DNA from: Candidatus Aenigmatarchaeota archaeon
GTDB lineage: Archaea > Aenigmatarchaeota > Aenigmatarchaeia > PWEA01 > JACQIF01
Direction of reading: 5' to 3'
Assembly (NCBI GenBank): GCA_016432325.1
Contig: CP066684.1
Location: 265,018 to 329,017 of the forward strand
DNA: 64,000 bases
A program made the translations under genes and the position numbers. The notes under the pieces were generated by a model. It did no database searches, was not told the origin of the DNA, and worked only from the letters and a program-made list of their open reading frames with translations. This document shows, piece by piece, positions 4,218 through 25,458 of this stretch. Numbering within the stretch: position 1 is the stretch's first letter; every line of letters begins with the position of its first letter.

Positions 4218-5953
4218 GACCACTCTTCGTGGTGGCCGTGCTAACGTTGGCTCTATTGGCCTCGGCCGTATCTGTCCACGCAGGACACGATGCAGCGACT
4301 GCAGTAAGCTTCGGGGACACGGTTTTCACCACGCCCAACGGCTCCCAGTACGCGCCCGCGGCATCCTATCCGGTCAGCGTCACCATAACCAACGAGAGCT
4401 TCGGAAGCGATACGATAGACGCAAGCTCGGTAAAGATGAGGCTCGTGGCTCCTGGCGGAGGCTCGTTCAACTATACGAGCGCGACGACGCCTGCCGTCTC
4501 GAACACCAGCAACGGCGTCTTCAGCATCACGTTCACCCAAGGCCAACTGGGACCCGCGGGCACTTACACGCTGACGTGGTTCGCGAAAACGGTCGCGGAG
4601 AACGATACCGAAACCGCGTCAGGCGGCGTGGAGTATACGGTATCCAAGAACTCCAGCGCATCTGTATCGCTCAAACTCAACGGCACCGCGGGAGACAGGG
4701 CGTATAACATCGGGAGCGTTATTGAGCAAAACGCGCAGTCGACAGTCAGCGGACTCACTACACGCCTCTACAATAATTTCAGCGGCTCCATCGGGCTGGT
4801 GGGCAGCGGCTCTGCAGAAGTCACGGTCTCGAACAGGACAGATACGACCGCACCGACTACTACTCTGGGAGTCTCTCCATCCAGTGCATCCCCTCAGCAA
4901 GTCGTTACAGTATCCTGCACAGTCTCGGATTCCGGAAACGTGGGCGCGGGCCCCTACGCGGTTTCGGCTAACGCGACAGGCAATGAAAACTATTCGGCCT
5001 CTGCGACTGTCACGCGGACAGCCACGCTGAGCTCTGTCGCGCCAACAAAGACCATCACAGTAACAAAGCCCGGAGGAAGTACGTTCGCCGTGGCCAACTG
5101 CAACGAGACGATTTCCGGAAGCAGTACGGAAGAGTCAGGCACGTACTCTGTGAGACTGCAGGCCGCAGACAACGCAGGCAACACAGACGAGAGGACTGTC
5201 ACATTCACCGTAAGCGCGGCCAGCGGCGACTCTGGTAACGGGAGCAGCGGAAGCTCTGGCGGCAGCAGCGGTTCTGGCGGCAGTTCAGGCGGAGGAGGCT
5301 CCGGCGGCAGCACGGGAGGCCTTGATGAAGGCGCGGTAGAGACCGTATCCCTCCAAACGGTCAGGCCCGGAGAGGCTTACGTTGCGAAGTTCTCCAATTC
5401 CAATCTGGGAATAGTTGAGATTGACTTCGTTGCCAAGGCGCCTGCCAGCGACGTTCGCATCACTGTAACAGAACTCAAAACAAGGCCGGAAACCACCTCG
5501 AGGCTCAACGACTGGGTATACAAGTACGTGTCGATAAAAGTCACCAACATAGAAGCCGGCGACATCGAATCGGTAAAGATACGGTTTGCCGTTTCCAACA
5601 AATGGGCCAAGGAAAACCGGGTGGACTTGGACTCGATAGCGCTCTACAGGTATACGACCGAATGGACTCCGTTACAAACCACGTCAGAGCCCTCTTTCCT
5701 TTCAGAAATGACGTTCTATGACGCGAAAAGCCCAGGGGTCTCGTTTTTCGCCATTGCCGGTTCCGAACGGGCAGAGCCCATCGTCAGCGTGCTGAATACC
5801 ACAGAACTGAACCTGACGTCGATAACGTCGCCGGAGGCGGTTGCGAACTACTCCAAAGGGCTGCTGGTCCTTCTTGCACTGATATTCGCGATAGCCGCGG
5901 GCGTGATGTACTGGAAATGGGACGTTCTGTTCAAGAAGCCGCATTCCAGGTGA
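4214..5953 (+). CDS. Cell-surface protein, Ser/Thr/Gly-rich, with a C-terminal transmembrane anchor
   Basis: Signal peptide MRPLFVVAVLTLALLASAVSVHA; long S/T-rich beta-type region; SG linker SGDSGNGSSGSSGGSSGSGGSSGGGGSGGSTGG; a C-terminal ~190-aa domain followed by a hydrophobic helix and YWKWDVLFKK; the ATG overlaps the upstream stop (ATGA). Confidence 0.55.
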   Translation: MRPLFVVAVLTLALLASAVSVHAGHDAATAVSFGDTVFTTPNGSQYAPAASYPVSVTITNESFGSDTIDASSVKMRLVAPGGGSFNYTSATTPAVSNTSNGVFSITFTQGQLGPAGTYTLTWFAKTVAENDTETASGGVEYTVSKNSSASVSLKLNGTAGDRAYNIGSVIEQNAQSTVSGLTTRLYNNFSGSIGLVGSGSAEVTVSNRTDTTAPTTTLGVSPSSASPQQVVTVSCTVSDSGNVGAGPYAVSANATGNENYSASATVTRTATLSSVAPTKTITVTKPGGSTFAVANCNETISGSSTEESGTYSVRLQAADNAGNTDERTVTFTVSAASGDSGNGSSGSSGGSSGSGGSSGGGGSGGSTGGLDEGAVETVSLQTVRPGEAYVAKFSNSNLGIVEIDFVAKAPASDVRITVTELKTRPETTSRLNDWVYKYVSIKVTNIEAGDIESVKIRFAVSNKWAKENRVDLDSIALYRYTTEWTPLQTTSEPSFLSEMTFYDAKSPGVSFFAIAGSERAEPIVSVLNTTELNLTSITSPEAVANYSKGLLVLLALIFAIAAGVMYWKWDVLFKKPHSR

Positions 5954-5962
5954 GGTAGGACC

Positions 5963-6262
5963 ATGAAAGACGTTGTTCGCCTGGCGCTCGTAATATCCTT
6001 CTTTCTCCTCACATCCACGGTCTCTGCGCTTCCCGAAGAGAATCAGAAGGAACAGCACAGTCCTCTGGTTTCCATCAACATCGGAGAGTCTGGGGAGACC
6101 AATGATACGGGAGCCTCAAACTACACGCAGAACGCGACGGCGCCTGCGCAACCCCCGGCTTCCGAAGGCGTCCGCGGGATGCTGGTGATACTTGCGCTCG
6201 TAATATCCATAGCCGCGGGCCTGCTCTACTGGAAGTGGGACTCCATCTTCAAGAGATATTAG
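5963..6262 (+). CDS. Small secreted protein sharing the same C-terminal anchor (hydrophobic helix + YWKWD-x-IFK)
   Basis: 99 aa; N-terminal signal MKDVVRLALVISFFLLTSTVSA; C-terminus GMLVILALVISIAAGLLYWKWDSIFKRY is nearly identical in pattern to the C-terminus of the upstream 579-aa protein. Confidence 0.4.
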   Translation: MKDVVRLALVISFFLLTSTVSALPEENQKEQHSPLVSINIGESGETNDTGASNYTQNATAPAQPPASEGVRGMLVILALVISIAAGLLYWKWDSIFKRY

Positions 6263-6316
6263 ACCGTTTCTGAGCGTTTTTGACTATTATATCAACCTGT
6301 TTATCATGGTGTTTCC

Positions 6317-6943
6317 ATGACGTCCAAAAACGTTCGAAAAGGAGTCTCCTATCTCAAGCGCACAGATCCGCGCCTCGCACGCGTCATCGCCCGTTCGAAG
6401 ACACGCCCGTCCTTAAGCCGCCGCAACAAGCCCTTCGCCTCTCTCGTGCAGTCGATAATGTACCAGCAGCTCGCGGGCGCAGCCGCGGCGGCTATCCATA
6501 AAAGACTTCTCGCTCTCTATGATGGAAAGGAACCAACACCGCGGCAGGTTCTCAAAACGCACTCGCGAACGCTCCGCTACAGGTGCGGCATGTCGTGGAA
6601 GAAAGCCGAGTTCCTGAAGGACCTTTCGAGGAAAGTCTTGGACGGAACGGTCGAAATACACGAACTCGACCATCTGCCCGACGACAAGATTATCGAAGAG
6701 CTCACGCAAGTCAAAGGCATAGGCCGCTGGTCCGCGGAGATGTTCCTGATGTTCAACCTCGGGCGGCTGGACGTGTTTCCCGTGGACGATCTGGGCATCA
6801 GAAACGGCATGACAAGACTGTACAAGCTTCGCGGCCGCGTCACCAACGAGCGACTCGAACGAATCGCGGAGAGATGGCGCCCTTACCGTTCGCTCGCATG
6901 TTGGTACGTCTGGACATACAAGGAAGGCGAATGGAAGTACTAG
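6317..6943 (+). CDS. HhH-GPD superfamily DNA glycosylase (AlkA / 3-methyladenine DNA glycosylase II-like)
   Basis: 208 aa; helix-hairpin-helix + GPD region LTQVKGIGRWSAEMFLMFNLGRLDVFPVDDLGIRNG with the catalytic Asp. Confidence 0.65.
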   Translation: MTSKNVRKGVSYLKRTDPRLARVIARSKTRPSLSRRNKPFASLVQSIMYQQLAGAAAAAIHKRLLALYDGKEPTPRQVLKTHSRTLRYRCGMSWKKAEFLKDLSRKVLDGTVEIHELDHLPDDKIIEELTQVKGIGRWSAEMFLMFNLGRLDVFPVDDLGIRNGMTRLYKLRGRVTNERLERIAERWRPYRSLACWYVWTYKEGEWKY

Positions 6944-11733: not shown

Positions 11734-11970
11734 TTGCCAAACCAATTCAATAATGTGAACCCCATGAGGCAAGTCATAATCTACAAAGGAGAAGACAATT
11801 ATTGGGTGGCCGAATGCCCGTCCCTTCCGGGATGCATTTCTCAAGGCAAAACGAGAGAGGAGGCCGTCGCAAACATAAAAGAAGCCATAGAAGGTTACAT
11901 CGAAACTCTGAAGCAGGATAAGCTTCCTGTTCCAAAAGAGCACTACGACACTATGATGGTTGCCGTATGA
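11734..11970 (+). CDS. hicB: HicB-family antitoxin (UPF0150)
   Basis: YKGEDNYWVAECPSLPGCISQGKTREEAVANIKEAI. The likely start is the internal Met at 11764. The stop overlaps the hicA start (ATGA). Confidence 0.65.
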   Translation: MPNQFNNVNPMRQVIIYKGEDNYWVAECPSLPGCISQGKTREEAVANIKEAIEGYIETLKQDKLPVPKEHYDTMMVAV

Positions 11971-12185
11971 AACTTCCCGTTGTTTCTGGAAGGGAGACGG
12001 TCAAGGCTTTGGCCAAAGTCGGGTTCTCACTCAGGCACAGAAAAGGCAGTCATATGATCCTGAGGCGCGACAACCCGTTTACACAACTGACCGTGCCAGA
12101 CCATAAAGAGCTGGACAGAGGAACGTTAAGGGCTATCATCAGGCAGGCCGGGTTGACTGTGGAACAGTTCACAGACCTTTTGTAA
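11967..12185 (+). CDS. hicA: HicA-family mRNA interferase toxin
   Basis: 72 aa; VKALAKVGFSLRHRKGSHMIL (YcfA/HicA signature). Confidence 0.7.
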   Translation: MKLPVVSGRETVKALAKVGFSLRHRKGSHMILRRDNPFTQLTVPDHKELDRGTLRAIIRQAGLTVEQFTDLL

Positions 12186-12287: not shown

Positions 12288-12301
12288 TGGTGCGATGGCC
12301 G
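12288..12301 (+). repeat. Candidate att core, left copy
   Basis: TGGTGCGATGGCCG is identical to 25299-25312. A 14-mer match alone is within chance for 64 kb, so the call rests mainly on its position. Confidence 0.25.
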
Positions 12302-12391
12302 CTTCCCACCCCCAGAGTGCGGTGCGTCGTTAGGATAACTTTTACCGGCGTTCGTCTGTTGGGAGGGCTTGTATTTATAGATTTTTAGGGC

Positions 12392-13216
12392 TCACCCGAA
12401 TTGATTTTTCCAGTCTTCCAATATCTGTTTTAACCTTTTGACTTCCCTTTCTGGAAGGGGATTATGATGATCTACTATGTTTCTAGATAGTTTCACCGCT
12501 TTCTCAAATGTAACAGGCCATAGTTCCAAATCGAGAAGATTCTTAAAAACTTCGTGCTCTTTGCGCATTATGTAGACCAAATCCTCCAAGTCAGTATAGA
12601 ACAATTCGTGTGACCCGCGTGGGGCGTGCCATTTGTTAATCCCTTCCAATGCCTTTCTGGATTTAACCTCGTTGAGCAAACTACTTCTGATTCCTGCTTT
12701 GTGCCACCAGTCGGCACCGTATTTTTGTGATAGGGTATTATGAATAAAATGTCGCAGAGAATTTTCGAGTAAGTAGAGAATAACATACGGTTCTGCCATT
12801 CTTTGTGCATCTTCTTCCACCGCATCATCGATAAAGGGAATCGAGGAGGGCATTCTGAATCGAGGTTTTATTCTTCTCGGTATGTCTCTAGGGTCTTGAT
12901 CATCTTCTCTAAGGTCTACATGTAGCCATTGATCTAGAACACCGAGAAGCTTGAGCTGCGGTACCTTTTCATAGATTTCTGAGCGATCATTGGTGCCGAT
13001 TTGTCTAATCAGGCCATATCCATGATCGTTGAACCTATTGATGGCCTTGCTCATTGTAGGTTGTGGTATAGAAAGTCTCGTGGAAAGCTCCTTTACGGAT
13101 TCCTTTTTGCTGATGTTCTTTAGGATTCTTAGTCTAATTGGAGAATTCCCCACAGCCTCTTGAAACTTTTTTATCAAGTCTCTTTTTTCCCGGGTCAACA
13201 CCTTCAAGACAATCAC
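12392..13216 (-). CDS. wHTH-HEPN fusion protein (putative HEPN RNase with an N-terminal winged-helix domain)
   Basis: C-terminal RNIVDHHNP fits the HEPN R-N-x3-H motif. An N-terminal winged helix is indicated by ILKNISKKESVKELSTRLSIPQPTMSKAINRF. The gene is AT-rich relative to its flanks. Confidence 0.55.
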   Translation of the reverse strand: MIVLKVLTREKRDLIKKFQEAVGNSPIRLRILKNISKKESVKELSTRLSIPQPTMSKAINRFNDHGYGLIRQIGTNDRSEIYEKVPQLKLLGVLDQWLHVDLREDDQDPRDIPRRIKPRFRMPSSIPFIDDAVEEDAQRMAEPYVILYLLENSLRHFIHNTLSQKYGADWWHKAGIRSSLLNEVKSRKALEGINKWHAPRGSHELFYTDLEDLVYIMRKEHEVFKNLLDLELWPVTFEKAVKLSRNIVDHHNPLPEREVKRLKQILEDWKNQFG

Positions 13217-13425
13217 TGCCGCTTTATCTTTCTTGAAGTTCTCTGGCGTCTTATTGAGCTGGCGGACTTTCCTAATAGGCTCCCGATTTCCTCCGACGTG
13301 AGACCATTTGCAGTCATTATCTTAATCTGCGTCCTCTCATCTTTCCCCTGAGCCGCCACAACTGCTAATAGCCTATCAAGCTTGCGATTCGTTTCCCTCA
13401 AAAGCTCCGATGCTCTATCACTCAT
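13213..13425 (-). CDS. Small HTH DNA-binding protein (HTH_10 / sigma-70 region-4-like)
   Basis: 70 aa; LTSEEIGSLLGKSASSIRRQR; paralogous to the adjacent 81-aa ORF; overlaps its neighbours. Confidence 0.45.
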   Translation of the reverse strand: MSDRASELLRETNRKLDRLLAVVAAQGKDERTQIKIMTANGLTSEEIGSLLGKSASSIRRQRTSRKIKRQ

Positions 13426-13663
13426 TGTTGTCGCCCCCTTTGCCCTTTACGTGTTTTTTGGCCCTTCTTGCCCGCGAGAGGATGGTACTGACGCTCTCTG
13501 GAGTAGTGCCAACAACGCTGGCGATTTCTGACGGCCGCAGATTACATTGATCGAGGAGGGTTATCCTGTCCGTCATGGTCAAACCACGAGTACTCGACAA
13601 CGCTATTATACGCATAAGTTTATCCAACCTAACCGTAAGCTCTTTGAATTGTCTGTCGTCCAA
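13418..13663 (-). CDS. Small HTH DNA-binding protein (HTH_10 / sigma-70 region-4-like), paralogue of 13213-13425
   Basis: 81 aa; LRPSEIASVVGTTPESVSTILSRARRAKK. Confidence 0.45.
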   Translation of the reverse strand: MDDRQFKELTVRLDKLMRIIALSSTRGLTMTDRITLLDQCNLRPSEIASVVGTTPESVSTILSRARRAKKHVKGKGGDNNE

Positions 13664-13667
13664 GATA

Positions 13668-13985
13668 TCACCTTGCCCTAACGTAATATTTTTCCTTGCC
13701 CCCTCCCCGAGCTTCTCTGATTAAACCCGCATTCTGTAGAAGGGCAACATTCTGACTTATCTGTTGGATCGATTTGCTCGTCTCTGCCGCTATCTGACCT
13801 ACCGATCGTTTGCCGTTACATAGCTCATAAATCTTTTTACGCAGCGTTGATTTACCCAACATCCGTTGCTTCGATGCTTCCAAAACCTCAGCATTGACAA
13901 CGGTGGAGAGCTCGACTAGTTCTTGTAACCTATCTTGGATTTTATACAGGGCAAGGAGTATTTCAGCTTCGTTATCCTTAACCAT
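13668..13985 (-). CDS. ArsR/TrmB-like winged-helix transcriptional regulator
   Basis: 105 aa; ELCNGKRSVGQIAAETSKSIQQISQNVALLQNAGLIREARGGG. Confidence 0.45.
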   Translation of the reverse strand: MVKDNEAEILLALYKIQDRLQELVELSTVVNAEVLEASKQRMLGKSTLRKKIYELCNGKRSVGQIAAETSKSIQQISQNVALLQNAGLIREARGGGKEKYYVRAR

Positions 13986-14034
13986 ATCAATCGTTTCATT
14001 AAACGAGAGTTAACCTTAAATACACGACGTTACC

Positions 14035-14051
14035 ATATAACACTGTTATAT
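14035..14051. repeat. 17-bp perfect palindrome ATATAACACTGTTATAT (copy 1 of 4)
   Basis: Sits 50-66 bp upstream of the HTH/HEPN operon start (13985) and is followed by a TATTTAAGG TATA-like element. Confidence 0.6.
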
Positions 14052-14771
14052 TTCCTTGCCTGTCACAAACGGCGCCCTCCCGAGAAGCGCCTGCGCGAAC
14101 TCCGCCTCCGTTATGACCGCCGGCTTGAGCAACTTGATCCCCGTCAGCAGCTCCTTCGGCGCGTCCAGCTGGCCGCAGATGCCGATGGCGCGGGCTTCCA
14201 CGCCGTCCGCCGCCGAGAGTTTCTTGAGAATCTTTTCATCGGTGCCGAGGGAAAGCACCAGCACGAAATATTTTGTAAGCGCGTCTAGTATCGAAAGCTT
14301 GTCCGTATGAACGAAGCCATAACTCGGAACGGAGAAGGCCGCTGTTAGCAGTCTCTCCTGGACCTCCTTCGAATAGAAGAATCGTTCGAGTAGTTCATAA
14401 TCCTTCGTAGTCGGCAGGCGTCCGCCGGCCTCCTTGACGCGCTTCCTCGCGTCCGCGGCCGCGTCATCCCAATATTCCCACAGCGGCTTCAGCGTCGATT
14501 GGTAGAAGACCATTCGCCCGTAGCGGCCGTTGGCCGCCCGCTCGTACTTCTTGATGCCGCGGACGCGCTTCAGGTATTCGTCCCTCGAAACGTCAGCCTT
14601 CGCTACGTAGCCGCGGCTGCGCAGCCACTTCAGCTCGGCGATGAGATACTTCTTCGACGTCCGAACCGTCGCCTGAAGGGTCTTCAGGCTCTGAGGCGCG
14701 ATGAGCGTCATCAGATAGACGCTGAGCGTGAGAGTCTTTGCCAGCTTCGCGTAGGGCCGTGTGCGCTTCAT
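14046..14771 (-). CDS. Hypothetical protein (241 aa), element-borne
   Basis: High-GC ORF with coding-like composition; no recognisable motif. Confidence 0.35.
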   Translation of the reverse strand: MKRTRPYAKLAKTLTLSVYLMTLIAPQSLKTLQATVRTSKKYLIAELKWLRSRGYVAKADVSRDEYLKRVRGIKKYERAANGRYGRMVFYQSTLKPLWEYWDDAAADARKRVKEAGGRLPTTKDYELLERFFYSKEVQERLLTAAFSVPSYGFVHTDKLSILDALTKYFVLVLSLGTDEKILKKLSAADGVEARAIGICGQLDAPKELLTGIKLLKPAVITEAEFAQALLGRAPFVTGKEI

Positions 14772-14897
14772 AATACAACGTTCACGCGCCCGGTTAAATA
14801 GGCACGTGCCCTAAGGTTTCCTAAAAGCAACTTCTGACGCCCGACGAGGAACCTTAAGCGGGTGATAACTATATACCACCGCCGGTAGTAAACTGTC

Positions 14898-15176
14898 ATG
14901 GCAAACAGAACCCGCGCGACGTTCACACTCGGTGTAAAGACCGTCGCGCGCTTGCGCGAAGCGTCCGCGATTGCCGGCCTGCCGATGTCGCAGTTGTGCG
15001 AGCAGGCCATTCTTGAAAAGGCGCGGAGCCTTCTGAAAAACGGCAATGGCCAGAAGCAGTGCAACGGTTCTTCATCCCCGATAGTCTGCCTCATAGTCGC
15101 CATTCTGAAAAAGTTCCTGGGAATCCCAGAGCAGAACGGTAACAAGAACGGAGCTGGTAACGGTGCCAATAATTAG
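14898..15176 (+). CDS. Ribbon-helix-helix (CopG/Arc-like) protein
   Basis: N-terminal ATFTLGVKTVARLREASAIAGLPMSQLCEQAILEKA RHH pattern. Confidence 0.4.
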   Translation: MANRTRATFTLGVKTVARLREASAIAGLPMSQLCEQAILEKARSLLKNGNGQKQCNGSSSPIVCLIVAILKKFLGIPEQNGNKNGAGNGANN

Positions 15177-15292
15177 GTTTGAGTCTCTGGAGGAGTTCTT
15201 CGCCTACATCGAGGAGCAGGGACGCAAGCGCGGCGTGGTGCTGATGAAAGAGCCGCCTGCGGCACCGGCGCCCAAGAAGGAGGTCGAACGCC

Positions 15293-15577
15293 GTGGACGC
15301 TGACGAGATGCTTCCGAGCGTCAAGGGTTGGCGGTCGGCGGGTCTGAGCCAGATGGACATCGTGATAATGGTGCTCCGGCGGAACATGCCCGGCGTTTCG
15401 CAGAGGCTGTTGGCCGAAATACTGGACATAAAACAGCCGGCGATAGCGCGGCGAGTCAGGACGCTCGAGAGATTCGGCTTCCTGAAGGAACGAAAAGAGG
15501 TGGTTGAGTATGAAGGCAAGATACGAGAGCAAGAGATTCCTGTGCGGCGACAAGCGGTCGCTGAGATTGGAGCTTGA
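15293..15577 (+). CDS. Winged-helix (MarR-like) transcriptional regulator
   Basis: GVSQRLLAEILDIKQPAIARRVRTLERFGFLKE. Confidence 0.4.
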   Translation: MDADEMLPSVKGWRSAGLSQMDIVIMVLRRNMPGVSQRLLAEILDIKQPAIARRVRTLERFGFLKERKEVVEYEGKIREQEIPVRRQAVAEIGA

Positions 15578-15848
15578 AGGCGGGGACTTGGCGTTGTTGT
15601 CCAAAGGCCCGCTCGCGGCGACTGCGCACTACAAAGGCGAGGCGCGGCCTGTTGAGCTGCGCATCGGCGAACATAAAGAGGAGCTGCGTTTGGATTCGCA
15701 GAGAGGAACGATGGACGACGCGAAGAATTACGTCGTGACGATGAGCCGCGGCGCGTACGAGTCGCTAGGGCCCGGAATGTTCGCCGGTGTCAGCGGACGG
15801 GACTACTGCGGAGGGGAGATACATGTGTCGACCGAAGAAAAAGATTAG
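15504..15848 (+). CDS. Hypothetical protein (114 aa)
   Basis: ORF only; overlaps its neighbours. Confidence 0.2.
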   Translation: MSMKARYESKRFLCGDKRSLRLELEGGDLALLSKGPLAATAHYKGEARPVELRIGEHKEELRLDSQRGTMDDAKNYVVTMSRGAYESLGPGMFAGVSGRDYCGGEIHVSTEEKD

Positions 15849-15996
15849 GATCGTCAGCTCGCGGCTCACGACCGATATGAACGGCTTCCTGAGACGCGAG
15901 TGCTGCCGCCTGCGCGTCACAAGAAGCGAGTTCATACGCGTGTTCCTGTGGAAGGAATTGGCGCAACGCCTCAAGGCGATGGAGGCGTCGTTATGA
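15823..15996 (+). CDS. Ribbon-helix-helix (CopG-like) protein
   Basis: KKIRIVSSRLTTDMNGFLRRECCRLRVTRSEFIRVFL; the internal Met at 15823 is the likely start. Confidence 0.35.
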   Translation: MCRPKKKIRIVSSRLTTDMNGFLRRECCRLRVTRSEFIRVFLWKELAQRLKAMEASL

Positions 15997-16182
15997 CACA
16001 GCTCATAAGCTATCGCGGCCTGATGAGGCTCTACGAACTGTGGCGCGGCGGCTCGTCCATGCCTCCGGGATGGCGCGAGTCGGTTCGCCGTTACGTCGTT
16101 CATAAGCGCTGCCGCGTCCTGATTGACAGCGACGGCGTATCGCAGCTCGCCCAGGCGGAGCAGATGGCCAAGATGATGTTCG

Positions 16183-17475
16183 GTGGTGCGGATGCGCAAA
16201 TGCCTGTTTGAAGGATGCACGGCGGAGGTGGAGGATTCATACCCTCTCGATTTCTGCGCGGCGCACAGGGAGGCGCCGGATGAAAGAATTACGGCACCGA
16301 TGTCTCTTGATGAACTCAAAGAAATCCTCGGCGTCACAATCAAAGCCGACGACACGAACAAGGTTATAACGTTTCTCGCTATGCTGACTGCGTTCACCGA
16401 GGACGCGCAGATTAATGTTTCGTTCCGCGCGCCATCGAGCACCGGCAAGTCTTACATACCTTTAGAAATCGCTTCTCTCTTCCCCAAAGACGACATAATA
16501 GAAATCGCCTATGCTAGCCCGACAGCCTTCTTCCACGACCGCGGCGAGTGGGACGCGGAGACGGGATGCCTCAAAATAAACCTTGAGAGAAAGATAATGA
16601 TTTTCGTGGACATGCCGCACGATTCGCTGCTTCACCGATTGCGTCCGCTTCTTTCGCACGACCGCAAGGAATTAATCTTCAAAATCACAGACAGGAGCGA
16701 CAAGAAAGGATTGAGAACGAAGAACGTCATACTGCGCGGCTACCCTTCGGTTGTCTTCTGTACGGCCTCTTTGAAAATGGATGAACAAGAATCCACGCGC
16801 AACGTTCTGTTGAGCCCCGAAACGAACCAAGAAAAGCTGCGAGAGTCCGTTCTGCTCAAGATCCGCAAGAACGCCGATGTGAAGACATACCAAGACTGGC
16901 TGATGAGCGATTCGCGGCGCGAAATCCTGAAGGCGCGCGTCGAGCAGATTAGGAACGCGAAGATAGACAACGTCATAATCCCGGACACGGCGCGCATCCA
17001 AGAACGTTTCCTCAACCGCAAGCTGAAGCCGCGCGACATGAGGGACGTGGGGCGGCTGATGTCCATCGTAAAGGCAGTCGCCCTGCTTAACTTTTCCCAC
17101 AGGGAACGGCGCGGCAACGACCTTGTCTGCAGCGCGGACGACATAAACACTGGCTTCGCCGTCTGGGGCGACATAGAGCGGTCGCAAGACTTGGGAGTGC
17201 CGCCGTACATTCTGCGGGTTTTTGACGAGGTTATAATGCCGCTGGCCGGGAACGGGGGAATCCAGCGCAAGCGGATAGTCAGCAAGCACTACGAGGTCTA
17301 TGGCAAGCCTCTGCCCGACTGGCTGCTGAGACAGCAGATATTGCCATCGCTGGAGGCTGCCGGACTCGTCTATCAGGAGGTCGATCCCGAGGATCGGCGC
17401 CAGCTCCTCATCCAAGTTTCACCCGCACCCGCTACTCACGGTATCTCTGGGTCGCTGGAAAATACCGTGAGTTAA
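16183..17475 (+). CDS. Element replication/packaging-type P-loop NTPase with an N-terminal Cys-rich region
   Basis: 430 aa; N-terminal CxxC...CAAH; Walker A RAPSSTGKSY; Walker B KIMIFVDM. Confidence 0.5.
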   Translation: MVRMRKCLFEGCTAEVEDSYPLDFCAAHREAPDERITAPMSLDELKEILGVTIKADDTNKVITFLAMLTAFTEDAQINVSFRAPSSTGKSYIPLEIASLFPKDDIIEIAYASPTAFFHDRGEWDAETGCLKINLERKIMIFVDMPHDSLLHRLRPLLSHDRKELIFKITDRSDKKGLRTKNVILRGYPSVVFCTASLKMDEQESTRNVLLSPETNQEKLRESVLLKIRKNADVKTYQDWLMSDSRREILKARVEQIRNAKIDNVIIPDTARIQERFLNRKLKPRDMRDVGRLMSIVKAVALLNFSHRERRGNDLVCSADDINTGFAVWGDIERSQDLGVPPYILRVFDEVIMPLAGNGGIQRKRIVSKHYEVYGKPLPDWLLRQQILPSLEAAGLVYQEVDPEDRRQLLIQVSPAPATHGISGSLENTVS

Positions 17476-17488
17476 GACTGGGGGTAAG

Positions 17489-17503
17489 TATAACAGTGTT
17501 ATA
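17489..17503. repeat. Palindrome TATAACAGTGTTATA (copy 2 of 4; 15 bp perfect within the 17-mer)
   Basis: Lies exactly at the GC-to-AT compositional break after the rep gene (ends 17475). Confidence 0.6.
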
Positions 17504-17504
17504 T

Positions 17505-17978
17505 TTAAACAACAAATGTTGTTTGAAAATGGGTTAGCGTATCCTTTAGAGGCAGCCCACTTCCTATACAAATTTGGACTTTCATCGCACCGTCCTTAAA
17601 TTGGGTGTCGTATAGACTGCCCACATTGGATGGCTGATGATGCCAGTTCTTGTCTTTCCATATTATATCGGTACCAGCAGGCGAGACCACGACACCATAA
17701 ACATCGATAGTATCCCCATCTTTCGTATCTTGCCTAGCTTGCAGGAAGACGTTACCGCTAACTTGCGGTGCGATATCGAAAAAAAGTTGGTTTCCCACCA
17801 AGCGCATGTAACCGTATGTAAGATGTGATTCTTCCTGAGTCCCCAATCTCAGAACAAAGGTCATATTAGATTTAGACCCTTCCGTAATCCGAAGATGGGA
17901 TTCTTGGTTCTCGTAAAACTTCAGTTTCTTCATATCTCGGGAAAGGTTGAACTGACTTTTATAGTGCATAGCACTCAT
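17505..17978 (-). CDS. Hypothetical protein (AT-rich cassette)
   Basis: ORF 17505-18038 trimmed to an internal Met to avoid overlapping the divergent RM gene; no known motif. Confidence 0.3.
   Translation of the reverse strand: MSAMHYKSQFNLSRDMKKLKFYENQESHLRITEGSKSNMTFVLRLGTQEESHLTYGYMRLVGNQLFFDIAPQVSGNVFLQARQDTKDGDTIDVYGVVVSPAGTDIIWKDKNWHHQPSNVGSLYDTQFKDGAMKVQICIGSGLPLKDTLTHFQTTFVV
17507..17524. terminator. Palindrome AAACAACA-aa-TGTTGTTT between convergent genes (candidate bidirectional terminator)
   Basis: 8-bp perfect arms flanked by T/A runs, between the rep gene (+) and ORF 17505-17978 (-). Confidence 0.3.
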
Positions 17979-17985
17979 TAAGGTC

Positions 17986-20598
17986 ATGGAACGCCAAGAA
18001 GTCAGGGCACAGATCAAAACTCTTGTAGAAGACTTCAAGGCAAACTATACTTCATACAAATCCCGCTCCGAAGCTGACATAGAGCAACTTGTGCTACGAC
18101 TCTTCAAGATTCTTGGTTGGACAGACGTCAACGACGTTTTCCAGCAAGTTAAGACGCACCGAGGCGAAAAACGAGGTAGAGCCGACTTCGCCTTCAAAAT
18201 CAATGATAGGACAGTTTTCTTTTTGGAAGTAAAGAAGATGGGCGTACCTTTGGATAAAGAGGCGGATAGACAGGTTATATCGTATGCTCTATCTCAGAGA
18301 ATACCGTTCGCCGTATCGACAAACTTCGAGGAATTAAAGCTCTTTTGTGTTGAAGCGTTCGATAAGAAAGATCAGGTTTTCAGAGTCTTCAGGTACGAAG
18401 ATTACTCGATCAAAGATGATTTGTTTCTTCTGTCGAAGGAGAGTTTCGCTTCGGGTAACACGTTGAAAGAAGCTGAAAGCGAGGGTCGACTGAAGAAGAG
18501 AGTAACCATCGACAAACCGCTTTTGGAAGACCTCATGCATATCCGCAGTCTCGTAGCAGGCGACATAGAAAAAAGTTACCCGGACAAATACGAACTCAAT
18601 GAGCGCGACGAAATAATTCAGAGAATAATAGACCGCTTGATTTTCATACGTCGGTGTGAGGATGTGGGCATGAACCCAGAGGGTCAAACGCTCGAAGAAA
18701 TCAAACATCTTTCAGACGAGAAAGCGTATCCTAAACTGAAACAACTCTTCGCTAAGTATAATGATGTCTACGATAGCGGCTTATTCTCGATTGGCACGGA
18801 TAATGATTGTGATAGAATAACGATCGATGGGTCTATCATTCACAAGCTTGTAGGATACCTCTATGAATCCAAGAACGGTCAGTATATTTACAACTTTGAC
18901 TGGATAGATGCCGACGTACTTGGACAAGTGTACGAACAATATCTCGGTAAAATACTCGCACAAACAAAATCAGGTAAAACGAAACTTAAGGAAGGACAAG
19001 CGCATCGTAAGGAACAGGGAATATACTATACTCCCACCTACATTGTCAATTACATTATTAAGAACACTGTTGGCGCTAAACTAAAAGAGAGGAAAATTAA
19101 CGTGAACGATATTTCGATACTCGATCCTGCTTGTGGGTCTGGATCATTTCTTATCAAGGCATTTGACGAGATGTATAACTATAGACGGGGTAAAGGCGGC
19201 ACGGATCAGCGTAAATTTGATACACAAGGCATTTACTCCATTAAAACCGAAATTCTTAAAAACAATATTTTCGGTGTCGATCTTGACAACAAAGCCGTGG
19301 AAATAGCTAAATTAAATCTACTCTTAAAGGCGGCAGAGAACGGACGCCGATTACCGAAGGAATTAGACGCTCACGTCAAGCGTGGTAATAGTATTATAGA
19401 TGATGAAAAAGTTGTGGGCGCCGATGCGTTCCGTTGGGAGAGTGAATTTACAGATATCGTAAAACAAGGTGGATTTGACATCATTATAGGCAATCCGCCT
19501 TATGGGGCAGAGTTGAAGGAAAACGAAAGGGAATACATTTCTCGGAAATATGAAACCGCGAAATCGTACAAAAATACAGCGCTTGTTTTCATAGAGAAAT
19601 CGATGAATCTATTAAAAGATGGAGGATACTTTGGAATGATTGTACCAAAGTCCTTGGCATATAGCCAAGCGTGGAAACCATGTAGAGACTTCATTAAGAA
19701 GGACATGATTTTGTTAGTTGATGTTAGCAAAGCCTTTGAAGATGTTTTATTGGAACAAGTTATATTCATTATACAAAAGGGCAGTGGCAAAAAGTCCTAC
19801 ATTGTAGAAAACATTGATACCGGCTCTAAATTTACTGTGGACAAATCATTCATAGATAAAATCGATTCCTTGATAGTTCATGACAGTAGAGAAGACTTCG
19901 AAGTGTTCAAACATCTTATGTCCTCTCCATTACAAATGAAGAGTGTTTCCAAAACAAGTCGTGGATTGCCGCTCCAGAAGTTTATAACCAAAAAGAAAAC
20001 ACCATATAAAATATTTCGTGGGGTCAACATTTCCCGCTATCACCTTGGGGATAGTACAGACTTCTTAGAGAAAATCGATGCTACAAATACAAAGGTTAAA
20101 CAGCTTCTTCAACCTAAGATAATTTCACAGAGAATAGTGGCTCATGTAACACGCCCAAAGGACCATATCATAATCATGTCTGCATTGGATGGAGAAGGAC
20201 AGTTAAATGTGGATACTGTAGAAAATACCACTCTAACCGATAAGAAATACAAGCTAGAGACTATTTTGGCTATAATGAACTCCGAATTGATTTCATGGTA
20301 TGCATACAGGTATATCTTCGGTAAAGCCATTAGAACTATGGATTTCGATGATTACTATGTTGGTAAAATACCTCTGCCTCATACATCTAAATCTGTTGAA
20401 ACTGCTCTAACCGAGAAGGTTTCAAGAATAAATGACCTTAACAAAAAAGTTCATCAGTTGGGCGATAAGAAAACGGCCGAGACTGCTAAGCTCGACGAAG
20501 AAGTCAAGAAGACTAATGCGGAGATAGACGAACTCGTCTACAAGATATACGGGGTAACGGACGCCGAGAAGAAGACTATTAAAGAAAGCTTAAATTAA
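17986..20598 (+). CDS. Type IIG (fused REase-MTase-TRD) restriction-modification enzyme, gamma-class N6-adenine methyltransferase
   Basis: 870 aa. HsdR_N-like N-terminus with PD-(D/E)xK (ADFAF...FLEVKK); motif X VLGQVYEQYL; GIYYTPTYIV; motif I ILDPACGSGSFL; motif IV IIGNPPYGAE; ~300-aa C-terminal target-recognition region. ~40% GC. Confidence 0.7.
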   Translation: MERQEVRAQIKTLVEDFKANYTSYKSRSEADIEQLVLRLFKILGWTDVNDVFQQVKTHRGEKRGRADFAFKINDRTVFFLEVKKMGVPLDKEADRQVISYALSQRIPFAVSTNFEELKLFCVEAFDKKDQVFRVFRYEDYSIKDDLFLLSKESFASGNTLKEAESEGRLKKRVTIDKPLLEDLMHIRSLVAGDIEKSYPDKYELNERDEIIQRIIDRLIFIRRCEDVGMNPEGQTLEEIKHLSDEKAYPKLKQLFAKYNDVYDSGLFSIGTDNDCDRITIDGSIIHKLVGYLYESKNGQYIYNFDWIDADVLGQVYEQYLGKILAQTKSGKTKLKEGQAHRKEQGIYYTPTYIVNYIIKNTVGAKLKERKINVNDISILDPACGSGSFLIKAFDEMYNYRRGKGGTDQRKFDTQGIYSIKTEILKNNIFGVDLDNKAVEIAKLNLLLKAAENGRRLPKELDAHVKRGNSIIDDEKVVGADAFRWESEFTDIVKQGGFDIIIGNPPYGAELKENEREYISRKYETAKSYKNTALVFIEKSMNLLKDGGYFGMIVPKSLAYSQAWKPCRDFIKKDMILLVDVSKAFEDVLLEQVIFIIQKGSGKKSYIVENIDTGSKFTVDKSFIDKIDSLIVHDSREDFEVFKHLMSSPLQMKSVSKTSRGLPLQKFITKKKTPYKIFRGVNISRYHLGDSTDFLEKIDATNTKVKQLLQPKIISQRIVAHVTRPKDHIIIMSALDGEGQLNVDTVENTTLTDKKYKLETILAIMNSELISWYAYRYIFGKAIRTMDFDDYYVGKIPLPHTSKSVETALTEKVSRINDLNKKVHQLGDKKTAETAKLDEEVKKTNAEIDELVYKIYGVTDAEKKTIKESLN

Positions 20599-20664
20599 CG
20601 TCTGAGACTTGACCCAATACACCATATGGAAAGGGTTTAATAGCTTTGTCCATTCACATTATAC

Positions 20665-21759
20665 ATGGTCAGGGATAGTCTAGAATTCTTTGATGCTGAC
20701 GGAGAATTTTTAAAAAGAATAGAGTCCGTCAAGTCAATTGGACCTACGCCCCGTAAGGTCATTCTCTTTATCCAAGATTCAGAAATGCCTTTTTTGAAAC
20801 TGATTAAGCAATGGATTCCTGCTAGATATGAAGGCACTATTTGTAAAACAGAAGAATTTGATAGATTCGACGTAGCGGAGCTTACTATAAAAAATAGAGA
20901 TTTAGAAGGCGCTTTATACAAATGTTCTCACTGTGGTCAAGAAATTCCCAAAGAAGAACTTTTTGAATATGGACAAAACATGCAGAACTTACTTGTATTC
21001 CCTAAAAATAGTCCCGTCTTTTTCTTGGTAACAAATAAAGGTTCCCATGAACTGGACGCCGATTTAGGCTTCTTCAAAGCACTTTATCCCTTCGTATCTC
21101 GTGTACGATTCCGTTCGTACCAACTAAAACAAATGCTAGACGTTCTTCCTAATAAAACCGATATAGTTATTTCAGAATACGTTGCTAAACGTTATTATGG
21201 CGAAAAAAAGACAATCGAACTTCACCAAAAGGTGGACGTTGATACGGCATTTCTTCAAGCGGCTAAGGAAAATACCTGGATTGACAGCATTCTTCTGGAA
21301 GTTGATGGAAAGAAAATACGATTGGCGCGAAACGGAAGAATACAATACTATCAGTCGTATCACTTTAGCAACATCTTCAGTCAACTGATTAAACCAATAC
21401 TGCATAACCTAACAGCAAACTATGAAAATGTTCTAAGAAATCGCTCTCGGACAATTGCTAACCCGGCGGCCAAACCTATAGTATTTAAAACGGAAAAACC
21501 AGTTTTTACTTCTCAGAATGCTGGTATCGAACTGATAAAACGACTTGGCCGCCTACGGGGAATAGAAATAGCACAAGTCAATAGCGACGACCAGATGCCG
21601 GAGTTGATGGTAAAAGATTACACGTCTGGAGCAAGCTACTCAATAGACGTCGTAGCCGAGAATATGATAGTTATGACACCACAGACAGGCGTACGAGAAA
21701 TTTCTCTTAATAGAGTCGTGAATAAAATACTAGAAGATTTTGACTGTGAGGTAATCTGA
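20665..21759 (+). CDS. Hypothetical protein (364 aa) with a CxxC pair, AT-rich cassette
   Basis: CSHCGQ motif; ~36% GC; its stop overlaps the next start (TGATG). Confidence 0.4.
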   Translation: MVRDSLEFFDADGEFLKRIESVKSIGPTPRKVILFIQDSEMPFLKLIKQWIPARYEGTICKTEEFDRFDVAELTIKNRDLEGALYKCSHCGQEIPKEELFEYGQNMQNLLVFPKNSPVFFLVTNKGSHELDADLGFFKALYPFVSRVRFRSYQLKQMLDVLPNKTDIVISEYVAKRYYGEKKTIELHQKVDVDTAFLQAAKENTWIDSILLEVDGKKIRLARNGRIQYYQSYHFSNIFSQLIKPILHNLTANYENVLRNRSRTIANPAAKPIVFKTEKPVFTSQNAGIELIKRLGRLRGIEIAQVNSDDQMPELMVKDYTSGASYSIDVVAENMIVMTPQTGVREISLNRVVNKILEDFDCEVI

Positions 21760-22889
21760 TGGTTGCTCCAAAACACACGAAAGATGATGTAGACAGTTAT
21801 CGGGAGGCCGTTTTGGCTAATATTGTTTTTAAAAAGTATTTGAAAGAAATATGGAATGTTGGATACGATCTATATTTCGGTGCTAGACTAGTCTATGATA
21901 AAGACAAACCAGCGGTAACGCCCGATTTGTTTCTTAAAGGTACTTCGAGTAATGATATTGTAGGGGATATTAAACGTTCTTTGCCGTCAAATTTCCCTAA
22001 CAGTTTGGAGTCCAAAAACTATATGGAATGGGCCAGGGGGGAAGGTGGAAAAGGTTTCGTTATGCAGATGTTGGATGTAAGTCTAACACAAAAGTTAAAG
22101 AAATATGATAGCGAATTTCTCAATTGTACGAACCCACATGATATTTTATTTATCCTGCACGAAAGAGCACAGAGAACATACATGCTCTGGAAGAGACATT
22201 TACCGTACATCCCACGAAACAATCTGGTTGGTCTACAATATCATGTTTCTAGAGGGTCTAGCGTCAAAACACTTAATATCGGAATACTAGACGGACAGTT
22301 CTCAGATCAGGGCTTAGGCGAATTCTTCAGAGATAACCCAATAGCTTGGCACTTTAACGAAGAATCCCAGCTAATCGGAGAATACAAAATTGCTGTAGTT
22401 GACGAGGGCCATCAGCCACCAAAAGAATATGTGATGCTCATTCTGTGGCAAAACATTTTTGATGAAATTCTGAGAAACAAATACTCAGAAAGTCTTTTGG
22501 ATAGAGTGAAAATACTAGAACAAGGATTAAATCCAGTTATAGTTGTGGATTTGGATACCATTATAGAATACCTTAGTAAATATTATATATTACCATATTA
22601 TGATACCGCCGACAACTCACAGGACACAAGGAGACAGTTCACGAGAAGCCTTGTAAAAGATGCAATGAACTCATTTACTGAAATTGATATAACCGATGTA
22701 ACGAAGGTAGACGGGGGAACAAATCCCGCGTATAAAATAGTCTATCAACCGCTGTCTAAAGGACAGGATGCCTTGCAAGTCTTAATAGACGCGTTGTCTG
22801 ATGCGGGAATTTTAGAAAAGGAAGTGGTCGATATCCCGAGACAGATTGATCTAACATCATTTACCGATAAAGACAGTGATACTCGATAG
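21759..22889 (+). CDS. Hypothetical protein (376 aa) with an N-terminal PD-(D/E)xK-like nuclease motif
   Basis: TPDLFLKGTSSNDIVGDIKR (PD...D-I-K); translationally coupled to the upstream ORF. Confidence 0.4.
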   Translation: MVAPKHTKDDVDSYREAVLANIVFKKYLKEIWNVGYDLYFGARLVYDKDKPAVTPDLFLKGTSSNDIVGDIKRSLPSNFPNSLESKNYMEWARGEGGKGFVMQMLDVSLTQKLKKYDSEFLNCTNPHDILFILHERAQRTYMLWKRHLPYIPRNNLVGLQYHVSRGSSVKTLNIGILDGQFSDQGLGEFFRDNPIAWHFNEESQLIGEYKIAVVDEGHQPPKEYVMLILWQNIFDEILRNKYSESLLDRVKILEQGLNPVIVVDLDTIIEYLSKYYILPYYDTADNSQDTRRQFTRSLVKDAMNSFTEIDITDVTKVDGGTNPAYKIVYQPLSKGQDALQVLIDALSDAGILEKEVVDIPRQIDLTSFTDKDSDTR

Positions 22890-23275
22890 AGTGTAGAGAG
22901 TTAGAGGAGTAGCCAATTGAAGTCCCAAAAATAAGGTATATAAACATCCTCACCAATCAATTATTCAATATGCTCCCCAGTCTTGTACGCCGGCTCGTCC
23001 GGCGGCAACACTGGGTTATTCTCTCTTTTCCTTGATGCATTCTAAGGCTTCTAGAAGGCTGTGTTTGACGCAACGACTAGACTACGAATTTCGATGTATC
23101 AAACAATTTAGATTTTATTCTAACTCCACCTTCTGCTTCCACCTGGGCCACTCGGTGATTCCCCCTTTCACTCGTAATTCTCCGTGCCTTGGAAATGTTG
23201 GTGGCCTGAACCAGAACCTTTCCTAATCTATGGACGTTAATCCAATCATCACTGTCCACGGGAAAAGTTACTGGG

Positions 23276-23674
23276 TTATTCATCTGTCTCACTCATTTTT
23301 CCTGCTTTTACAAACTTGTCAAAAACTCGTTGTACCTGCTCGCCAGAAAGGGCCAATTCTGTGGAGACAAAAAAGACGGATAGTTTCGTATTACCAGCAC
23401 TCTTTTCTCTCAATATTAGTTGTGTTATCTCCTTTTCTGCTTCCATATCACTTATCCTCCTGTCTTTAGTGATCGATTCGTGCATCCCATGCATTTCATG
23501 TTGCCTTCTCAATGAGACTACCTCTTGGCGAAGGAAATCAACCTCATCCTCAAGACTTCTCAGTCTCTGTTGTTGCGCCCTAAAAACAGGCAGAGGGATG
23601 GATAGACGCTCGAAAACGGTTTGTATAGGCTCGTCTTCTCCAACAATGTCTATTGCACGTCTGATGGTTGCCAT
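23276..23674 (-). CDS. Hypothetical coiled-coil protein (132 aa)
   Basis: AT-rich ORF downstream of the integrase on the same strand. Confidence 0.3.
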   Translation of the reverse strand: MATIRRAIDIVGEDEPIQTVFERLSIPLPVFRAQQQRLRSLEDEVDFLRQEVVSLRRQHEMHGMHESITKDRRISDMEAEKEITQLILREKSAGNTKLSVFFVSTELALSGEQVQRVFDKFVKAGKMSETDE

Positions 23675-23678
23675 ACAT

Positions 23679-23942
23679 TCACCTACTTATCATACTCTTT
23701 ACCTTTTGCAAAAACTCCGGATCTGGTGATTCTATGTGCAGTATTTTGTCTTCAACTTCCTTCTTGTTTTGGTGGCTCATTATCAATGGAATGGGCATGT
23801 TGTTTTTTACCTTTACCAGAACAATGCTCGCTGGCATTATATCTTTATCCATTTGAGATAGATTAGACGCGAATTCTTTATCAAAGAGATCCCCAAGGCC
23901 CACACCATGCAATCGCACGCTCTCTATTTGTTCCATGAACAC
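23679..23942 (-). CDS. Hypothetical protein (87 aa)
   Basis: ORF between the integrase and 23276-23674, same strand. Confidence 0.3.
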   Translation of the reverse strand: MFMEQIESVRLHGVGLGDLFDKEFASNLSQMDKDIMPASIVLVKVKNNMPIPLIMSHQNKKEVEDKILHIESPDPEFLQKVKSMISR

Positions 23943-24048
23943 TCACCGTATATTATTGGTGCTACAGCCACTTAAACTGAAGACGGGGTGGTTTTACATC
24001 ATTCCGAAGTCTTTATTTAAGGCTATGTATCATTGACCATAGTGTTTT

Positions 24049-24065
24049 ATATAACACTGTTATAT
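24049..24065. repeat. 17-bp perfect palindrome ATATAACACTGTTATAT (copy 3 of 4)
   Basis: Overlaps the integrase stop codon at the AT-to-GC compositional break. Confidence 0.6.
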
Positions 24066-25238: not shown

Positions 25239-25298
25239 AATACATTAACCTCCGCCGGAGTATATAGTTATCGCCGTCGACGCACCATAGAATGAGGT

Positions 25299-25312
25299 TG
25301 GTGCGATGGCCG
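25299..25312 (+). repeat. Candidate att core, right copy
   Basis: TGGTGCGATGGCCG is identical to 12288-12301 and lies 61 bp upstream of the integrase start. Confidence 0.25.
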
Positions 25313-25334
25313 GGATTTTCAAGCACTCCTACGT

Positions 25335-25382
25335 TCGTAGGGGTTAAAGGGGCGCCGAAGTGCCACTTTTTTGAACCCGGGC
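25335..25382 (+). repeat. ~50-nt intergenic repeat, copy A
   Basis: TCGTAGGGGTTAAAGGGGCGCCGAAGTGCCACTTTTTTGAACCCGGGC is ~85% identical to 27787-27840. Confidence 0.5.
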
Positions 25383-25458
25383 TACGACGTTGGCAACGTC
25401 GAGTCCTACCACTAGACTACCATCGCTCGCCCGAGAATATGCCAGTATTGTATTTAAA

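Follow-up and report, generated by a model that had tools for sequence, protein, structure and literature searches.

We analysed a stretch of 64,000 nt (hereafter the window) from contig CP066684.1 of a Candidatus Aenigmatarchaeota archaeon (DPANN; assembly GCA_016432325.1, positions 265,018–329,017 of the forward strand), which carries a compact cassette of four minus-strand genes, three of them encoding small helix-turn-helix (HTH) proteins and the last a larger protein in which a winged HTH (wHTH) is joined to a HEPN domain (Table 1). All four open reading frames (ORFs) of the cassette, marked in a first-pass annotation of the window, were found at 12392–13985. They had been described as overlapping at their start and stop codons; this was the case for two junctions, with 8 nt shared between genes 2 and 3 (13418–13425) and 4 nt between genes 3 and 4 (GTGA, 13213–13216), but the genes of the 105-aa and 81-aa proteins are separated by a gap of 4 nt. 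The NCBI call for an identical large protein is 271 aa long and begins at a TTG three codons downstream, with which the 4-nt overlap would become a short gap. Hidden Markov models (HMMs) of the families described below recovered each ORF of the window (gene 1 by famA at E = 2.5e-39, genes 2 and 3 by famB at 8.7e-24 and 8.0e-21, gene 4 by the effector-family HMM at 3.2e-122), and genomes unrelated to this one show the genes in the same order; we therefore do not regard the four ORFs as chance occurrences. The operon is a conserved unit, its gene order being kept across the loci compared, and from this order and the spacing the four genes are predicted to be co-transcribed, as had been suggested. 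The cassette is also AT-rich, as had been noticed, with a GC fraction of 0.444 (12392–13985) against 0.543 for the window and 0.575–0.597 for the backbone of the integrated element in which it lies.

Table 1. Features of the cassette and of the integrated element that carries it (window coordinates)
Feature	Coordinates	Strand	Description	Basis
Gene 1	13668-13985	(-)	105 aa, 'famA': N-terminal helix and ArsR/SmtB-like winged HTH	ORF
Gene 2	13418-13663	(-)	81 aa, TTG start, 'famB-alpha' small HTH	ORF
Gene 3	13213-13425	(-)	70 aa, 'famB-beta' small HTH, distant paralogue of gene 2	ORF
Gene 4	12392-13216	(-)	274 aa, GTG start, wHTH and Swt1-like HEPN, predicted RNase effector	ORF
Gene 4, N-terminal helix and winged HTH	12965-13192	(-)	residues 9-84	AlphaFold2, Foldseek
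Gene 4, HEPN domain	12398-12826	(-)	all-alpha, residues 131-273	AlphaFold2 domain model
RNIVDH, Rx4H catalytic motif of HEPN	12467-12484	(-)	residues 245-250	translation
Upstream region of cassette	13986-14052	(-)	TATA-like boxes and palindrome ATATAACACTGTTATAT (14035-14052)	sequence
attL-like copy of the last 14 nt of tRNA-Gly	12288-12301		TGGTGCGATGGCCG on the (+) strand; left border of element	direct repeat with 25299-25312
attR, 3' end of tRNA-Gly	25299-25312	(-)	CGGCCATCGCACCA	same 14-nt repeat
tRNA-Gly(GCC)	25299-25426	(-)	insert of ~53 nt in T-arm	by eye; ARAGORN once insert removed
Tyrosine recombinase/integrase	24060-25238	(-)	XerC/XerA/XerD-type, below equivalog cut-offs; adjoins attR	NCBIfam, E 6e-29 to 8e-26
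Type IIG restriction-modification-like gene	17986-20598	(+)	870 aa; in insert of 40% GC	PADLOC REase_MTase_IIG, 1.6e-93

The 274-aa product of gene 4 proved to be the fusion of a wHTH and a HEPN domain that had been proposed. Residues 147–270 were aligned with profile positions 3–111 of 115 of the Pfam family HEPN_Swt1 (PF18731) at 36.2 bits, above the gathering score of 27.5 (E 7.9e-9), and residues 125–274 matched the PADLOC model PDC-M34B at 1.5e-37. In the AlphaFold2 model of the entire protein (predicted local distance difference test, pLDDT, of 85) the wHTH is followed by a disordered linker (approximately residues 98–130) and an all-helical C-terminal domain, and the latter, when modelled alone, was again composed entirely of helices (pLDDT 88, predicted template modelling score, pTM, 0.81). 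The N-terminus, with helices at residues 9–22, 26–34, 41–48 and 52–62 and strands at 70–76 and 79–84, folds like ArsR/SmtB proteins, its Foldseek matches being NolR, ArsR, CzrA, SmtB and HlyU (probability 1.0, TM(target) 0.59–0.69, E ~1e-2). Neither the four proteins nor the products of the flanking genes contained a nucleotidyltransferase domain, and the partner of the classical HEPN-MNT pairing is thus absent, as had been stated.

The RNxxxH motif of HEPN RNases, said in the first-pass annotation to end the protein, is indeed present as RNIVDH, but lies 24 residues short of the C-terminus. Homologues of gene 4 (41 in number, at 41–59% identity) provided a check on whether the motif is conserved, since its loss in homologues had been named as evidence that would speak against the assignment: in an alignment of 32 sequences (gene 4 and 31 homologues) the residues E151, N152, S153, R155, R245, N246, H250, H251 and N252 were invariant, that is, both RNxxxHHN and ENSxR are retained throughout, and the last five of these residues were invariant in a 20-sequence alignment of the domain as well. 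The Rx4H residues are also kept in bacterial relatives, for example as RNIIAH in locus L018. By its motif, the HEPN domain is predicted to be a catalytically intact RNase of the Swt1 type. A HMMER search of the full library with the profile of the effector family retrieved 1343 representatives at E <= 1e-3, of which 672 reached E <= 1e-10, and nearly all of the best 150 matches were proteins of 250–280 aa with the HEPN domain at the C-terminus.

Upstream of the effector gene, the 105-aa protein is ArsR-like, as previously described, though under the curated thresholds. It matched NCBIfam HTH_metalloreg (NF033788) with E 7.4e-8 and 32.1 bits (cut-off 55) and Pfam HTH_5 with 19.4 (cut-off 22), the matches to MarR_2 and HTH_20 being sub-threshold too; the protein thus resembles members of the ArsR/SmtB family, while its membership, judged from these scores, falls short of the curated cut-off. 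Orthologues of this gene (famA) were found in L015, L001 and L016. We considered whether famA might be the effector wHTH copied without its HEPN domain and acting by heterodimerisation, and dropped the idea: the hhalign probability was 2%, BLASTP between the window proteins gave nothing and the HMMs showed only weak cross-matches.

Members of the second small family, famB, are composed of an N-terminal helix with the pattern xRLDxLIxLL, a short spacer, an HTH with GxxxxEIAxxLG and a basic tail, a layout seen in gene 2 as a helix xRLDKLxxxxAL, an HTH with EIAxxxG and again a basic tail. The two proteins of ~75 aa had been described as paralogous, which stands at the level of the family but not of a direct comparison: the 70-aa and 81-aa proteins gave no BLASTP alignment with each other and fall into different, old subfamilies. 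Both are recovered by one famB HMM, and both match a common intermediate, a 68-aa protein of L001 (the 70-aa protein at 3.2e-8, the 81-aa protein at 8.7e-14, the latter with the N-termini aligned); the 70-aa protein also matches a 75-aa protein of L004 at 8.0e-15. Because of these common intermediates and the common family HMM we accept genes 2 and 3 as paralogues at family level; to judge from their divergence, they are not recent duplicates. In clustering, the 81-aa protein belongs to famB-alpha, usually present once per cassette, and the 70-aa protein to famB-beta. The families famA and famB are themselves distant homologues (hhalign probability 93.8%, E 1.7e-7), and this homology, together with the maintenance of distinct famB subfamilies across cassettes, argues for non-redundant subunits.

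The likeness of the two smallest proteins to HTH_10 had to be abandoned, as neither matched PF04967 at E <= 1, and HTH_10 was absent from the 25 most-matched of the 40 Pfam families matched by 37 famB members. The nearest models for the 81-aa and 70-aa proteins were Sigma70_r4_2, HTH_38 and HTH_Crp_2, all below threshold. For Sigma70_r4_2 the two window proteins scored 18.8 and 15.2 bits (cut-off 25.7), and 11 of the 37 famB members matched it at E <= 0.01, with a best value of 6.7e-7, which is below the curated cut-offs. Profile matches of famB in PDB to NarL, SigR and SigW were weak (E 3e-3 to 2e-2), and a model of extracytoplasmic function (ECF) sigma factors aligned residues 10–63 of the 70-aa protein with sigma region 4. 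Relatives of famB-alpha form at least 612 clusters at 90% identity and, where named in their sources, are called 'sigma factor-like HTH', 'sigma24' or 'CsgD family'.

The arrangement was compared across genomes from two sides. On the effector side, homologues of the 274-aa protein were collected from 22 distinct loci, and in every one of these loci two to six famA/famB genes stand directly upstream of the HEPN gene, on the same strand and tightly packed. These loci derive from Aenigmatarchaeota and other uncultured archaea, Nitrosarchaeum, Bathyarchaeia, Anaerolineae, Chloroflexia, Dehalococcoidales and Ignavibacteria, so the array-plus-effector architecture occurs in both archaea and bacteria. 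The closest arrangement was that of L015, from another Aenigmatarchaeota metagenome-assembled genome, in which the order famA, famB-alpha, famB-beta, famB-gamma and HEPN compares with famA, famB-alpha, famB-beta and HEPN in the window. On the array side, metagenome contigs were probed with a famB-alpha pattern derived from a four-sequence alignment, which gave 80 loci, 71 of them distinct; an array was present in all but one of the 71, with one to seven small HTH genes (mode 3). The unit as a whole comprises four genes in the window and three to eight in its relatives.

What follows the array varied among the loci. The terminal gene was a Swt1-type HEPN gene, identified with the cassette HMM, in 28 loci, with a further 3 that have a stand-alone form of ~150 aa; a Ymh-family HEPN (PF09509 at 4.9e-17 and PADLOC PD-Lambda-3_B at 1.8e-10, both scores from L060 alone) in up to 7 loci, counted by eye; a wHTH fused to a Schlafen/AlbA_2 domain (SLFN_AlbA_2, PF04326, 1.2e-18) in 3; and in single loci a SIR2_2 protein (PF13289, 1.5e-8), a PDC-M36A-like protein (PADLOC, 4.5e-7) and a DUF4062 protein, the last by a weak match below the cut-off. 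PD-(D/E)xK-like domains are also among the terminal effector classes. Two further terminal families were without a library match, one of ~240 aa in 3 loci (for the members tested) and one of ~295 aa in 9 loci, for which Pfam, PADLOC, NCBIfam and the PDB sequences gave no match. Two well-assembled bacterial chromosomes agree with the metagenomic contigs, one having the array followed by a 303-aa protein and the other the array followed by AlbA_2. The array is hence what stays constant, and the gene at the end encodes an exchangeable effector, which usually has an N-terminal wHTH of its own.

Several features of individual arrays should be recorded. The ~295-aa protein (L043, L052, L057, L063, L070, L075, L087 and L112, in the last at 5961–6872) is wHTH-like in its N-terminal part and conserved in its C-terminal part, which shows the pattern FKDWGGExxDLxT...AFALKG...MGKNGDQIxRLF, and may be a nuclease-like effector. 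Stand-alone Swt1-like HEPN proteins of ~150–170 aa, devoid of a wHTH, are located within or at the end of some arrays (L004 at 4495–5004, L005, L006, L037, L041 and L047), and in L004 such a protein and a full wHTH-HEPN protein are encoded in one array. In L030, the wHTH-HEPN gene is preceded within the array by a gene for a 265-aa SLFN_AlbA_2 protein (1139–1936), giving two effectors in one cassette.

The genomic surroundings of the cassettes are diverse. Archaeal copies adjoin type IIG restriction-modification (R-M) genes (L027 and L030, the latter also next to a transposase), genes for GmrSD, ThsB_TIR and DUF499 plus DUF1156 (L028) or an integrase gene (L004); L007 and L009 adjoin FokI, MvaI, methyltransferase (MTase) and Csa3-like genes and an SLFN-like helicase gene, and other archaeal copies were found beside ribosomal or replication genes. 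The famB-alpha proteins are ~58% identical between the archaeal loci L012 and L031 and the Ignavibacteria loci L018 and L032, where the gene order is similar. This identity between bacterial and archaeal proteins and the AT-rich composition of the cassette point to horizontal transfer. The identity and the similar gene order suggest that the cassette has passed between the two domains of life fairly recently.

In the window, the cassette is part of an integrated element. The 14-nt end of a tRNA-Gly gene is directly repeated at 12288 and a recombinase gene adjoins the intact copy, from which we delimit an element of 13 kb (12288–25312), with the cassette at its far end, 90 nt from attL. The tRNA-Gly gene was missed in the raw window, for which neither ARAGORN nor Rfam reported a tRNA or other RNA; it was called by ARAGORN after in silico removal of 52–54 nt, its CCA is encoded, and the insert is a non-canonical intron. 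The element is a mosaic in its GC content, with a backbone of 57–60%, the HEPN cassette at 44% (12.3–14.0 kb) and a 6.5-kb segment at 40% (17.5–24.05 kb). The latter contains the type IIG R-M-like gene and, after it in the same direction (+) and up to 22889, two genes for proteins of 364 and 376 aa, which may be partners of the R-M enzyme; neither had a significant PADLOC or NCBIfam match, and the 364-aa protein had only a sub-threshold zinc-binding one in NCBIfam (E 0.012). A backbone gene at 16183–17475 (+) encodes a 430-aa protein with no significant family match, only a sub-threshold one of MarR type, which could serve in replication or maintenance of the element; small genes for a ribbon-helix-helix-like (14898–15176) and a MarR-like protein (15293–15577) are located near it. 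Directly outside attL lies a HicAB pair (11734–12185, +) whose genes share 4 nt; they encode a HicB-like antitoxin of 78 aa and a HicA toxin of 72 aa (E 1.1e-19).

The perfect palindrome TATAACA[C/G]TGTTATA occurs four times in the window (14036–14050, 17489–17503, 24050–24064 and 53777–53791), against 0.02 expected. Three of the copies coincide precisely with the points where the high-GC backbone of the element meets its AT-rich inserts, and the fourth lies ~20 nt upstream of the likely start of a gene for an Lhr-type helicase. The palindrome was rejected as an operator of the cassette, given the copy at the promoter of the unrelated helicase gene and the lack of a comparable palindrome upstream of other cassettes. 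It is probably a promoter or operator motif of the host or the element and not a part of the cassette; it could act as such a promoter/operator or as a recombination site. A scan for bacterial promoters and terminators gave chance-level counts, the models being bacterial and not applicable to an archaeon.

Conflict systems, whether for defence (abortive infection) or of a toxin-antitoxin (TA)-like nature, are recognised by such a combination of a constant HTH array with exchangeable toxic effectors, and the effector classes found (HEPN, SIR2, Schlafen-like and PD-(D/E)xK) are typical of abortive-infection and TA systems. The type IIG R-M gene in the element of the window, and neighbours such as GmrSD and ThsB_TIR of copies elsewhere, speak for the same reading. 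On balance, we take the cassette to be a conflict module whose toxic effector, here an RNA-cleaving one, is silenced by the HTH proteins until a trigger is received; it would serve in abortive infection or another form of defence, or in a TA-like addiction to the integrated element. Its constant part would be the famB array, usually accompanied by the ArsR-like famA, and its variable part the last gene, in which a wHTH is fused to a toxic enzyme. Once active, the HEPN effector would cleave RNA. Until then, the co-expressed HTH proteins would hold it off by repression of the operon, by its retention in an inactive DNA-bound hetero-complex, or by both, and infection, loss of the element or a similar trigger would release it. 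What we infer from the domains and their arrangement is that the effector is an RNase and toxic, that the HTH proteins neutralise it and that a trigger sets it free.

A number of observations weigh against the conflict module. The comparison of the HEPN-domain fold with PDB structures was not significant (top match Csm6, E 1.6), and the small proteins matched no PADLOC model, so that there is no link to a system already tested. Bacterial copies are mostly located among housekeeping genes and not in defence islands, a pattern scan of IMG/VR viral contigs found no relative, and no common operator was found upstream of the cassettes compared. Binding and neutralisation of the effector by the HTH proteins, for which a role as antitoxin or regulators had been proposed in the first-pass annotation, are themselves predicted steps, and we know of no type II TA system with several paralogous 'antitoxins' for one toxin.

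It is conceivable, though rather doubtful, that the cassette represents a new modular immune family of archaea and bacteria, in which the small-HTH array, a combination of sigma-4/GerE-like and ArsR-like proteins, is the sensor or specificity module and its assembly activates the wHTH-tethered effector (HEPN, Ymh-HEPN, Schlafen/AlbA_2, SIR2, a nuclease-like domain or the ~295-aa family). The array would in that case recognise foreign DNA or hold the effector on DNA and, if true, assembly-based sensing by an HTH array would be a principle absent from described defence systems.

Among the rival explanations, the one that fares best, though still unlikely in our opinion, is that of a DNA-templated sensor, according to which the small HTH proteins and the effector wHTH line up on a particular DNA, for example invading DNA with a combination of short motifs, so that the effector domains are brought together and switched on; the array would be a combinatorial specificity module and not an antitoxin. 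HEPN, SIR2 and PD-(D/E)xK enzymes are active as dimers or oligomers, and assembly on DNA would therefore switch them on. Every protein of the cassette, the effector included, has a DNA-binding domain; the small HTH proteins vary between cassettes in number (1–7) and in subfamily make-up, the subfamilies being old and conserved, and the tight packing and gene overlaps suggest stoichiometric co-production. The active sites of HEPN domains are generally known to form across the dimer interface (PMC3710099). For all that, such a sensor is pure inference, and it leaves the sparing of self DNA unexplained.

We consider it quite improbable that the cassette is an ordinary regulatory unit of mobile elements, with the HTH proteins as transcription factors and a non-toxic wHTH-HEPN protein that binds or processes a specific RNA. 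This would be in line with the DNA-binding domains in all four proteins, with the location of the window and L004 copies in integrase-bearing elements and with the existence of non-catalytic, regulatory HEPN proteins (MtlR), the HEPN domain of Swt1 itself being thought inactive (PMC3710099). Nevertheless, a regulatory role is disfavoured by the invariance of the Rx4H and ENSxR residues and by the swapping of effectors, since the replacement of the terminal gene by SIR2, Schlafen/AlbA_2, Ymh-HEPN or nuclease-like domains fits a series of effectors and not a specific regulator; furthermore, many copies are located outside recognisable mobile elements. Finally, an accessory role in R-M, in which the HEPN RNase would back up the type IIG enzyme at the level of RNA, with the small HTH proteins as controller (C) proteins, is very unlikely: a type IIG gene is present 4 kb away in the same element, type IIG-like genes adjoin the cassette in L027 and L030 and DUF499 plus DUF1156 in L028, and links between HEPN and R-M have been described (PMC3710099), but at least six unrelated backbone genes of different GC content separate the two in the window, where they are on opposite strands, R-M genes are lacking next to most bacterial cassettes and several archaeal ones, and the cassette is kept as a unit by itself.

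The conflict module may be set against systems already described. Anantharaman et al. 2013 (PMC3710099) present HEPN families as toxins linked to abortive infection (Abi), TA and R-M, and prokaryotic Swt1-like/Abi2 members as active enzymes in R-M and Abi contexts. The effector of the cassette shares with this clade (PF18731) the family model, an Rx4H motif in which R is followed by N, and an acidic or polar first helix that is conserved. The fusion partners given in that survey for the clade are an AAA+ ATPase (DUF499), giant helicase/REase/wHTH proteins or a transmembrane helix, and a wHTH-HEPN protein of ~270 aa behind a small-HTH array goes unmentioned there. PDC-M34 of PADLOC is a two-gene candidate obtained by 'guilt-by-embedding' (Payne et al. 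2024 preprint, 10.1101/2024.01.29.577857), defined in the supplement as the two-family cassette FAM_01148>>FAM_01657. Its B component, the HEPN protein, is shared with our cassette, and the bacterial relative in L018 matches PDC-M34B at 8.8e-53; the PDC-M34B models, of 147–192 positions, cover the HEPN part only. PDC-M34A had no match at E <= 0.1 among the small proteins of the window, L018 or L021, and because this component is absent the cassette does not fit the definition of PDC-M34.

Type II TA systems are similar in that small DNA-binding genes come first and the gene of the toxic enzyme last, in a compact unit with packed or overlapping genes that is scattered by horizontal transfer and carried on mobile elements, and in that the partner module is used with many toxins, like promiscuous antitoxin domains; they differ in having one antitoxin, where the cassettes have small paralogous genes, two to seven in number, and their toxin contains a wHTH itself. 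The cassette is not a HEPN-MNT (type VII) system, because it contains no MNT. With the CARF-wHTH-HEPN and CARF-wHTH proteins Csx1/Csm6 and Csa3 it shares the joining of a wHTH to a C-terminal HEPN domain, and the wHTH parts of the cassette weakly match the Csa3 and CasR models of PADLOC (1.4e-6 and 5.4e-6), but it has no CARF domain, no CRISPR-Cas genes are located nearby and its HEPN domain is of the Swt1-like family. The famB proteins align with sigma-70 region 4 and with the DNA-binding domains of GerE/NarL, and are in this respect like stand-alone sigma-70 region 4 or LuxR-GerE HTH proteins; they differ from these in that their matches are below curated cut-offs, and in that they form tandem paralogous arrays tied to an effector and are also present in archaea, which to our knowledge have no sigma factors.

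No description of the cassette was found in PADLOC, Pfam, NCBIfam or the searchable literature, absence from which is no proof that it is unpublished; it is apparently a member of a widespread, undescribed family of the type 'small-HTH array plus wHTH-effector'. Should this family serve in defence or addiction, prokaryotes would have a further module, compact at 1.5–2.5 kb and common in host-dependent archaea with small genomes, about whose immunity little is known (PMC12988326). The family would likewise provide a function for the at least 612 clusters of hypothetical 'sigma factor-like HTH' proteins, and a tractable test case for DNA-binding arrays that gate toxic enzymes. HEPN RNases, SIR2, Schlafen-like and PD-(D/E)xK proteins are standard killing enzymes of prokaryotic immunity and TA systems, which differ in how the enzyme is controlled. 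Here it is the control module that is unusual, namely a tandem of two to seven paralogous, very small DNA-binding proteins, distributed from DPANN archaea to Chloroflexota and Planctomycetota and combined with at least six types of effector.

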